From: Leucoraja ocellata
Lineage: Eukaryota
NCBI GenBank assembly: GCA_036785375.1
Contig: JAWMAR010000094.1
Span: 6,820,001-6,884,000 of the forward strand
DNA: 64,000 nt
Direction of reading: 5' to 3'
Shown: positions 52,600 through 55,500 of the stretch, piece after piece
How positions within the stretch are numbered: the first letter of the stretch is position 1
How the letters are laid out: every line of letters begins with the position of its first letter
Made by a program: the position numbers and the translations under genes
The notes under the pieces: generated by a model
Told to the model about the DNA's origin: nothing
Database searches by the model: none
What the model saw: the letters and a program-made list of their open reading frames with translations, nothing else

Positions 52600-55500
52600 A
52601 TGGCGTCCTCAGCTAAATCTTCATCTCACTGCTCCGCTATCAACTGTTCTAATCGTAAATCTAAACGACCAGAGCTGTCATTCTTTAGGTTCCCCAATAA
52701 AAAAGAAAGGTAAGAATATATTATTATAATTTTTTGTCGATATTCTGTCGTGAAAATGTTATTTTCTGTTCTCCCATCAACGGCCATTGGGAAACTGGGT
52801 TTGTCGGTACATTAGAAAGTTATTAGACTTATTTTATTACATCTTTACTTACCACAATAATGAAGACAAGTTTAACACTTCTATACGTTTTTTGTTTTGT
52901 TCTTGTAAGGGTTTGGTCTCCAAAATATGGCCCGCGGGACACATTGGGCCCAGTGACCACGAGATTTTTCGAGCTCAGACTCGAGTCCGAGAACGCGGCG
53001 GCTGTTACCCGTTATATCCCTCGAATTGTCGTGAAGAAGGGTACAATCAAAGATTATACAACTCAGCTCTATCATCTTTGGGTGCAATGGTGGGCCGGGG
53101 ATTCGGCGGCGGCGGTTGCAAGAAAGATAGTAGAGTAGCTCTGCACTATAATCTTTGGTCGGAATGGGACGGCTGAACGTTATAACATGCTATCGTTCCA
53201 CCCTCCCTCTCCCCCCCTTCTCCCTCTCCCCCCCTTCTCCCTCCTCCCCCTTCTCCCCTCTCCCCCTTCTCCCTCTCCCCCTTCTCCCTCTCCCCTTCTC
53301 CCTCTCCCCCTTCTCCCTCTCCCCTTCTCCTTCTCCTCCCTTCTCTCGATCCCTCTCCCTTCTCTCGATCCCTCTCCCTTCTCTCGATCCCTCTCTCCCC
53401 TCTCTAATAAACTCTTCTACATTTAAGGTGAAATGACATATAAGAGACAAAAAGCATCGTCAATATACAGGTCTCTCCACACAACTGAAAACAATTGCAC
53501 TTAAGTGATATGTCATCCATTGTGCAGGCATCTAGTTATGATCATTTTTTTTTATTATTAGTTAATCATAAATGATATCTCCTGTAATTTCAGATGTCAA
53601 CGGTGGGTCCAGAATACTCGTCGACAAGATCTCCTACACCGAAGTACGGAGTACTTGTCAGCCAACTGTTGTCTTTGTTCTGTACACTTTGAACTTGACC
53701 AGTTTTCCAACAAGCAGACTAAGAACAGGCTAAATTGGAATGCTGTTCCAACGCTCTTCGACGTTCCTAACCCGCCGAAACGTCTGTCTTCCCAACGCAG
53801 GTTACTCAAGAGGACGAATGTGAACCTCCCATCCTCACCAACACCTTTAAAACAGCAACGAGGCAAGTAATTTTCTCCTTTTTAAAATAATTTATATTCT
53901 CTCACTTTGGCTAAATATGAGAAAAAAATTGTATCCAACCTGATATGATTGCTAATGGTCAATATGTAATGGCATGTATGGTACTTTGATTTTCATTTGT
54001 GAAATGTTCACAAAACTATAATCACATATAAGACTGCACAGTGTGGGTGGTGGAATGCGTACTAGTATTTAATTCAAGTAAGAACATCCATTTAAAACTT
54101 CCTCAAGCCTAATTATTAGAACATTTGAATTGATTAAATTTATAAAAAACCTACAAAAATATATAGATCATGATTTTATTCTGGTAGATTGAAATTGGTG
54201 CATCACATATATATTTAATTATAACTAGACCAAGTGCAGACCCGTTGTGTGATCCCCCAACGTGCGGTTGTGGGAGGTGGGCGGCACGCAGCGTCACGCA
54301 CACTAACTATCCCCCTCTCGCATTCACGCTAATTACCCCCTTGATATAAAATTAATATGATTAATTTGCTCCTTTTACCCCATAACCACCCTATCTACTG
54401 AAGCATAGCCCCCAACTTGCAGTCACATCAAGAGCGGGGGCGGGGGGCGGGCGGGGGCAGAGAGAGAAGGGGCAGAGAGAGAGACAGAGACACAGAGAGA
54501 GGGGCAAGTGGGATAGGGGTGGAGAGGAGGATAAGAGGGAGGGTGGGTGTGGGCGGAAAGGTGGGGGAGATGGGGAGGAGAGAGAGAGAGTGAGGGGGAG
54601 AGAGAGGGGGATGAGGTGGGGAGCAGGGAGGGGGAGGGAGGGGGATGGTGGAGGGTAGGGGGTGTGGGGGAGGGGGGAGGGGGGTGGAGAGGAAAGGGGG
54701 GGATAGAGGAAAGGGGGGGAGAACTCGGCACACATGCGGCGGAGGGGGCTCTGAGCGAAACGGCCGTAGGTGGCGGCATTCTCTCGGAAATCGCAGCACA
54801 GATGGCAAAAAACGGTCAAGAACAGACTTTCAGTAGTAATGATTATTTTTTTAATTAGTATGCTTGCCATTTCATTCCCCCTTTTTCTTTTTCTTGTATT
54901 GGCAGTGCCATACAACATACAGACAGAACATTCTTACTGCTCAGCTGCAGACAAAGTTCCGCGGGAAGAACCCAGCAGTGTCTCTACAACTCCTGAAACA
55001 CCTGATCTTCAAATCACACCAAATGTAAATGACAGCAGAGCTCTGAAGAAGGAAAGACAGCGTACTTTCCGCCTCAAAAAAAAAGTCCAACTGACCAGAT
55101 TAGCAATGGGAAAGAATACTACAGAAAGTAAGACAATCAGTGACTTGATCAGAGGGGCTGGTGAATTTTTACAAGAACCAGCACTGTCTTTCTTTGCGTC
55201 GCAGTTGCGTAATGCATCTGGACGTAGAAGTGCAAGAGGAAGACGATGGAGTTATTCAGACAAGGTAGTTGCCTTGTCCCTCTACCACCAGAGTCCCCGA
55301 GCATATCAGTTCTGCCAGTGCATTTCACACTTCCATCAATCTCATCACTACGTAGGTGGTTGTGCAATATTGAAGTGCGGCCTGGGTTTCCCCTAAGATC
55401 TTAGAACTTTTAAAAGACAGGGTTGCGGGGATGTCAGAGAGAGATACATTATGTGTAGTCTCGTTTGACGAAATGAGTTTACGTGCAAGCCTCTCTTACA

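Follow-up and report, generated by a model that had tools for sequence, protein, structure and literature searches.

Short terminal-repeat inserts in nested P elements of Leucoraja ocellata as putative excision footprints

The window analyzed here is a stretch of 64,000 nucleotides from the Leucoraja ocellata assembly GCA_036785375.1 (contig JAWMAR010000094.1, positions 6,820,001 to 6,884,000 of the forward strand), in which one P-superfamily transposon (element I) is nested within another (element O). Element I harbors three inserts made of terminal inverted repeat (TIR) sequence only, termed F1, F2 and F3, and the right end of element O is reduced to 17 bp of TIR. We consider it likely that these four cases are end-joined excision footprints of a P-superfamily transposon that was released by a 17-nt (possibly 18-nt) staggered cut. 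Such an origin suggests that a vertebrate transposon may have used the same unusually long stagger as the fly P element, whose transposase cuts one strand at the tip of the element and the other 17 bp inside (PMC7776569). That paper presents the 17-nt staggered cut as a unique feature of the fly P transposase and states that neither the order of cleavage nor its mechanism is known.

The inserts and the truncated end of element O

F1 is self-complementary at 13 of 16 base pairs and is flanked by an 8-bp target-site duplication (Table 1). Its arms can be read either as 16+17 with three substitutions or as 11+14 with 8 nt of filler between them (11+8+14). A global alignment of the inner and outer introns with cheap long gaps placed one 41-bp gap (33+8) exactly at the F1 site, opposite a single GGTGCAAT in element O, and the intron flanks match in 78 of 96 columns of this alignment when the inserts are omitted. 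This was taken as the valid intron alignment; a MAFFT version was discarded, as it misplaced the empty site because the outer copy has an N gap and a 26-bp extra stretch. A preliminary description of this DNA had claimed a 33-bp insert of two P-type termini between imperfect 8-bp repeats and an empty site in a sister copy. Both claims were confirmed, with the qualification that the sister copy is a paralog of about 80% identity and not an allele.

To gauge the role of chance, the window was searched with a strict pattern (12 to 80 bp, exact agreement at the two 7-nt ends and a flank match of at least 7/8), which occurred twice, at 53048 (F1) and 62738 (F3), and did not occur in any of 60 block-wise dinucleotide shuffles. 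A relaxed pattern allowing two end mismatches and flanks of 5/8 gave three occurrences in the window compared to a shuffle mean of 0.68, and this number was reached by 3 of the 60 shuffles, so that no significant excess was present. Trust was therefore limited to strict matches and to sites with an empty paralog, and the relaxed candidates retained were F1 and F3 on the strict criteria and F2 on the basis of its empty paralog. The remaining 27 of 30 relaxed end-pair candidates were dropped for weak ends or flanks. Rejected sites include positions 33890-33933, with flanks of 0/8, and 28456-28497, with flanks of 5/8 and both ends imperfect. A generic hairpin scan was insensitive, since it recovered F3 as its top match but neither F1 nor F2.

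F2 lies 42 bp downstream of F1 and is also absent from element O. Its duplication (53115-53122 and 53158-53165) has decayed to a 5/8 match and has lost one base at the left edge. The duplication of F3 (62730-62737 and 62769-62776) matches at 7/8, and no empty paralog of this insert was present within the 64-kb window. Within 62709-62776, a P right end at 62729 has an 8-bp flank in common with the left duplication of F3, which suggests that one target site was re-used. The surroundings of F1 and F2 are CpG-rich, with an observed/expected ratio of 1.18 compared to 0.51 for the window.

The long ends of the window are conserved to about repeat position 32, whereas the six arms of the inserts cease to match them at positions 11, 14, 18, 17, 18 and 14. 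All six therefore end at 18 or earlier, the left arm of F1 being weak, and the right end of element O ends at 17. None of the seven arms matches at position 19, and the inserts lack positions 19-32, which the long ends conserve. When compared with the left end of element O, the right end matches at 15 of 17 positions and at only 3 of 13 beyond them. The bases past its remnant are intron and, as far as the join, agree with the inner intron at 17 of 20 positions. These arm lengths are consistent with a stagger of 17 or 18 nt. The two values are indistinguishable because repeat positions 17-18 form a 2-bp palindrome, so that blunt joining of 17+17 and annealing of 18+18 yield one and the same product; a stagger of 18 nt in place of 17 nt in this lineage appears rather doubtful to us.

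The three inserts, a small sample, all differ in length (33, 36 and 31 bp) and in their central sequence. The preliminary description had predicted heterogeneous central junctions and had taken one identical internal sequence in all inserts as evidence to the contrary; the three local centers differ as predicted. All three fall within the 30-37-bp band of fly junctions, with a probability of about 0.002 under a uniform 14-80-bp null that is crude and was set post hoc.

The age of the inserts relative to their host was also considered. F1 has 4 mismatches in 22 repeat and duplication pairs, compared to none in 41 for element I (p 0.012), and therefore F1 probably predates the last jump of element I. 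F1 and F2 were probably carried along in that jump, and further copies of element I may contain F1 as a passenger. Since the inserts seem older than the jump, identical copies found elsewhere could be passengers and not a miniature inverted-repeat transposable element (MITE).

In DNA folding, F3 alone formed a strong hairpin (z -6.1, with -2.6 for F1 and -1.7 for F2), a property that does not discriminate between the explanations weighed below. When the palindromic target core of the fly P element was used as reference (PMC2577343), five duplications scored 15-19 out of 40 matches and may lean toward this core, with p between 0.0003 and 0.045 depending on the copy and background chosen.

Excision and alternative origins

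In a first step, an ancestor of element I would have received a P element in its CpG-rich intron, with duplication of 8 bp, as the empty paralog indicates. P transposase would then have made a staggered cut at each end, at the tip on one strand and about 17 nt inside the TIR on the other, as is known for the fly enzyme, leaving each host end with a 3' tail of repeat sequence. Germline end joining may have trimmed or padded these tails by a few bases and ligated them, giving an imperfect palindrome of 31-36 bp between both target copies. F1, F2 and F3 would represent two-sided joins of the tails. The right end of element O would represent a one-sided version, in which about 860 bp were synthesized from the left end before synthesis stopped and the product was joined to the untouched right tail. 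The resulting scars would be inert. Directly seen among these steps are the insertion with its 8-bp duplication, the loss of all but the outer repeat bases and the differing centers.

Several observations weigh against this reading. The four cases all come from one locus, and F1 is the least clean of them, with a left arm that matches the long ends of the window up to position 11 and no further. For the right end of element O, an automatic estimate placed the arm end at 27, which became 17 after allowing for the purine-rich intron. The central letters AGCTCT are common to F1, F2 and F3; no more than about four substitutions and a 2-nt gap separate F1 from F3, which is also compatible with a diverged single master, and the excess of central indels over the single-master expectation has a p of only 0.01-0.06 under assumed ratios. 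The earlier proposal of an excision footprint in a vertebrate P lineage is partly supported, by the P-superfamily identity, the vertebrate host, the empty site, the varied junctions, the lengths within the band of fly footprints and a one-sided 17-bp remnant with a known parent end, but no long element with a CAAAGATTATA end is present in the 64-kb window. Among eight near matches to this end, five are arms of the inserts and three lead nowhere, and the length of the parent repeat was therefore assumed from sister families. With respect to published systems, the fly junctions used for comparison come from Rad51 mutants (Table 1 of PMC2895639), the flanking deletions after excision by zebrafish THAP9 were larger than those made by the fly enzyme (PMC10983969), and in human cells the junction given as typical of both human THAP9 and the fly enzyme consists of a deletion accompanied by rearrangement (PMC8230255).

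An alternative is that the 31-36-bp palindrome was itself mobilized by P transposase as a micro-MITE, with F1, F2 and F3 as diverged copies of one master. As expected of a MITE, the inserts are short and non-coding with TIRs and target duplications. Three copies with central letters in common lie within 10 kb, each with its own 8-bp duplication, and no long element in the window bears their common CAAAGATTATA end, which shows 4 mismatches over 66 terminal bases. However, the three local copies have three different lengths and centers instead of those of a homogeneous master, and at least two indels occur in 34 central bases where about 0.2-0.4 would be expected (assumed substitution:indel ratios of 5-12). 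The fly enzyme requires the inner half of the repeat, through a helix-turn-helix contact, and internal THAP sites (PMC7776569). F1, F2 and F3 lack both and thus lack complete transposase-binding ends, which supports footprints over mobile units. A 33-bp unit cut with a 17-nt stagger would also keep almost no duplex, and mobilization of the palindrome leaves the 17-bp right end of element O unexplained. On balance, a micro-MITE seems unlikely. It is also improbable that the 31-36-bp palindromes are mobile TIR-only units of a vertebrate P transposase, shorter than the DNA gripped by the fly transpososome. Such units would need different end pairing and cutting and would, to our knowledge, be smaller than any known DNA transposon.

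The same stagger without a separate excision step would be involved in a failed integration, in which the ends are joined to the target, the 25-nt single-stranded gaps (8 nt of target and 17 nt of repeat) break before fill-in, the middle is lost and the two filled ends are ligated. This follows from the strand-transfer geometry of the fly enzyme and would leave an identical duplication, varied junctions and arms no longer than 17 nt. Nevertheless, the documented source of such junctions is excision repair, and the one-sided end of element O better fits donor-site gap repair; we consider a failed integration quite improbable. Replication slippage across the long inverted repeat, between short internal matches, would preserve the two target copies along with some of each repeat, with no need for a special cut or for transposase, much like the nearly precise excision of bacterial Tn10. 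The products of such slippage were computed from the 33-bp sister-family repeats of the window as a stand-in for the parent family. With at least 3 matching bases, none of 12 products from the inner element and none of 9 from the outer element have both arms of 18 or less and a length of 30-37 bp, and with at least 2 matching bases 2 of 34 and 1 of 38 do. Slippage at the longest matches gives products of 12-22 bp, and the inserts are not joined at the longest microhomology; we regard this route as very unlikely. A chance palindrome, or an assembly artifact near the N gaps at 62228, 63230 and 63707, is hardly credible, as the shuffles yielded not even one strict match, F1 lies more than 9 kb from any gap, and misassembly does not make an empty paralog together with diverged duplications. 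Finally, a head-to-head junction between the ends of an excised circle was rejected, since the tips face outward and neither target copy is missing.

The host elements and other features of the window

Table 1. Positions of the inserts, their empty sites and the P elements that carry them, numbered within the window.
Feature	Positions	Strand	Description
F1	53048..53080	.	TIR-only insert CAAAGATTATACAACTCAGCTCTATCATCTTTG, 33 bp; from window sequence, end-pair search and gap alignment
F1, left target-site duplication	53040..53047	.	GGTACAAT; 7/8 match to right copy
F1, right target-site duplication	53081..53088	.	GGTGCAAT; identical to empty site
F1, empty site	63572..63579	.	Single GGTGCAAT in intron 1 of outer element O
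F2	53122..53157	.	Second TIR-only insert; length 35-36 bp; two arms of 17 with 2 nt between them (17+2+17)
F2, empty site	63607..63614	.	In outer element O, which is 43 bp shorter than the inner copy here
F3	62738..62768	.	Third TIR-only insert, 31 bp; arms 17+14
Element O, right end	63660..63676	-	Exactly 17 bp of TIR joined to CT tract of intron 1
Element I	52500..62905	+	Inner P element, 10.4 kb; carries F1, F2, F3 and several insertions of long interspersed nuclear elements (LINEs)
Element I, transposase gene	52600..57168	+	Broken P transposase gene; THAP exons 52600-52709 and 53594-53866, large exon from ~54906
Element O, left end	52404..52499	+	Outer P element up to the insertion of element I
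Element O, rest	62914..63676	+	Frameshifted THAP exon 1 and intron 1, truncated; includes 225-bp N gap

By its sequence, element I is a bona fide but broken P-superfamily element. Its TIRs are identical at 33 of 33 positions and its 8-bp duplication, CCCCACAC, at 8 of 8. It was inserted 96 bp inside the left end of element O, the duplication of which (52396-52403 and 63677-63684) matches at 7/8. Exon borders in the transposase gene of element I were taken from GT/AG in the sequence, and the large exon comprises RNase H, GTP-binding and C-terminal parts with several frameshifts and at least one stop. Seven pieces of the gene were searched against Pfam; five scored above cutoff, the THAP part of exon 1 scored below it and one had no match. 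The THAP domain (PF05485, cutoff 23.9 bits) matched exon 2 with 41 bits and exon 1 alone with 21.9 bits, the N and C parts of the RNase H domain matched PF21787 and PF21789, and the GTP-binding insertion domain (PF21788) was found with 37.8 bits. The motifs FDEM, CDQG, HDPPH and QDVVE align to the equivalents of D230, D303, E531 and D(2)H in the fly structure 6P5A, and the GTP-contact residues are mostly kept, with K400 replaced by R. Fly P transposase was the only significant match in the PDB, with an E value of 1.5e-7 for the C-terminal piece and 3.4e-43 for an intact relative. A homolog search identified four related proteins with 28-71% identity, including relatives that reach 66-71% over the C-terminal piece.

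Element I also contains a third P copy (59638-62729), the left end of which is split by a LINE (59658-60696) and which retains pieces of THAP exons around 60729-60800. Its left end at 59638 shares no duplication with the end at 62729 (flanks 0/8), and the two were therefore not treated as a pair. Decayed P ends are dense and ambiguous at 59570-59660, where a possible right end, an 8-bp spacer, an insert-like sequence at 59609-59625 and the left end at 59638 follow each other. The insert-like sequence (17 bp, flanks 7/8) was kept out of all counts because it can alternatively be read as part of the decayed right end. A 62-bp tandem repeat with about 4-5 copies is located at 58633-58962 in the 3' part of element I.

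Elsewhere in the window, an immunoglobulin light-chain cluster on the + strand (22675-23067 and 23918-24340) showed V-set and J sequences in one frame, a splice donor and then a C1-set exon. V and J segments joined in genomic DNA are typical of cartilaginous fish, and the presence of light-chain exons indicates a jawed vertebrate host. The cluster is flanked by two Tc1-like copies in opposite orientation, at 2510-3467 (+) and 36749-37684 (-), which are 95-99% identical and 33 kb apart and could delimit a composite unit or serve as a substrate for inversion. An open frame of 517 amino acids with an RNase H domain (740-2293, +) has the appearance of the 3' part of a non-long-terminal-repeat retrotransposon. 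Two tandem LINE copies with long reverse transcriptase and endonuclease frames, about 4.3-4.4 kb apart and 88-94% identical, are located at 41524-49835 (-).

Comparison with known P-superfamily systems

The type of scar proposed here is already known from fly experiments, and natural vertebrate P footprints are without a precedent that we could find. A literature search, within which most subscription papers were out of reach, returned no report of natural vertebrate P footprints and none on the stagger with which a vertebrate P transposase cuts, and footprints are not mentioned in the available parts of PMC3698922 and PMC13631171. Vertebrate homologues gave large deletions in cell assays, and retained 17-nt arms are not reported for vertebrate THAP9 cell excision in the available parts of PMC10983969 and PMC8230255. 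Fossil scars would provide a read-out from sequence only, with the longest arms as a measure of the stagger, so that a genome sequence scan could show whether the long stagger is conserved. Their junctions would additionally record how long non-complementary 3' tails are joined in the vertebrate germline. Repeat annotation likely misses scars of 31-36 bp or misfiles them as MITEs.

Zebrafish Pdre2/zfTHAP9 and human THAP9 likewise belong to the P superfamily in vertebrates and show 8-bp duplications, and internally deleted copies are present in zebrafish (PMC10983969, PMC8230255, PMC7776569). The TIR of Pdre2 is 13 bp long, whereas that of element I, at 33 bp, is close to the 31 bp of the fly element. 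The P-derived MITE BuT5 is likewise non-coding, with P-type ends and duplications, and depends on P transposase. However, it is about 1 kb long, while the inserts in the window are 31-36 bp, lack subterminal sequence and differ at the center (PMC3698922). In the fly P transposase structures (PDB 6P5A and 6PE2), the DDE and D(2)H residues and most GTP-contact residues align with element I, although the two are distant in sequence and the gene of element I is broken and carries R at the K400 position.

The closest parallel is provided by excision of the P element in the fly, where 17-nt non-complementary 3' tails stay on the donor ends and incomplete (one-sided) synthesis plus end joining accounts for most of the wild-type products (PMC2895639). 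In Table 1 of that paper, the two target copies persist at the junctions and the arms reach 17 nt at most. The preliminary description had stated that about 15-18 bp of each end remain in the fly, but the junctions are broader than this, with 28 of 66 at 30-37 bp by our own count. The end-joining products of P{wa} in Drosophila melanogaster are the laboratory outcome of a known cut, whereas the inserts in the window are decayed vertebrate fossils of another repeat (CAAAGAT...), known from sequence alone. The features in common are the retention of both 8-bp target copies, two tip-outward repeat remnants no longer than about 17 nt, junctions that are trimmed or have small fillers, a modal length of 30-37 bp and the occurrence of one-sided synthesis products.
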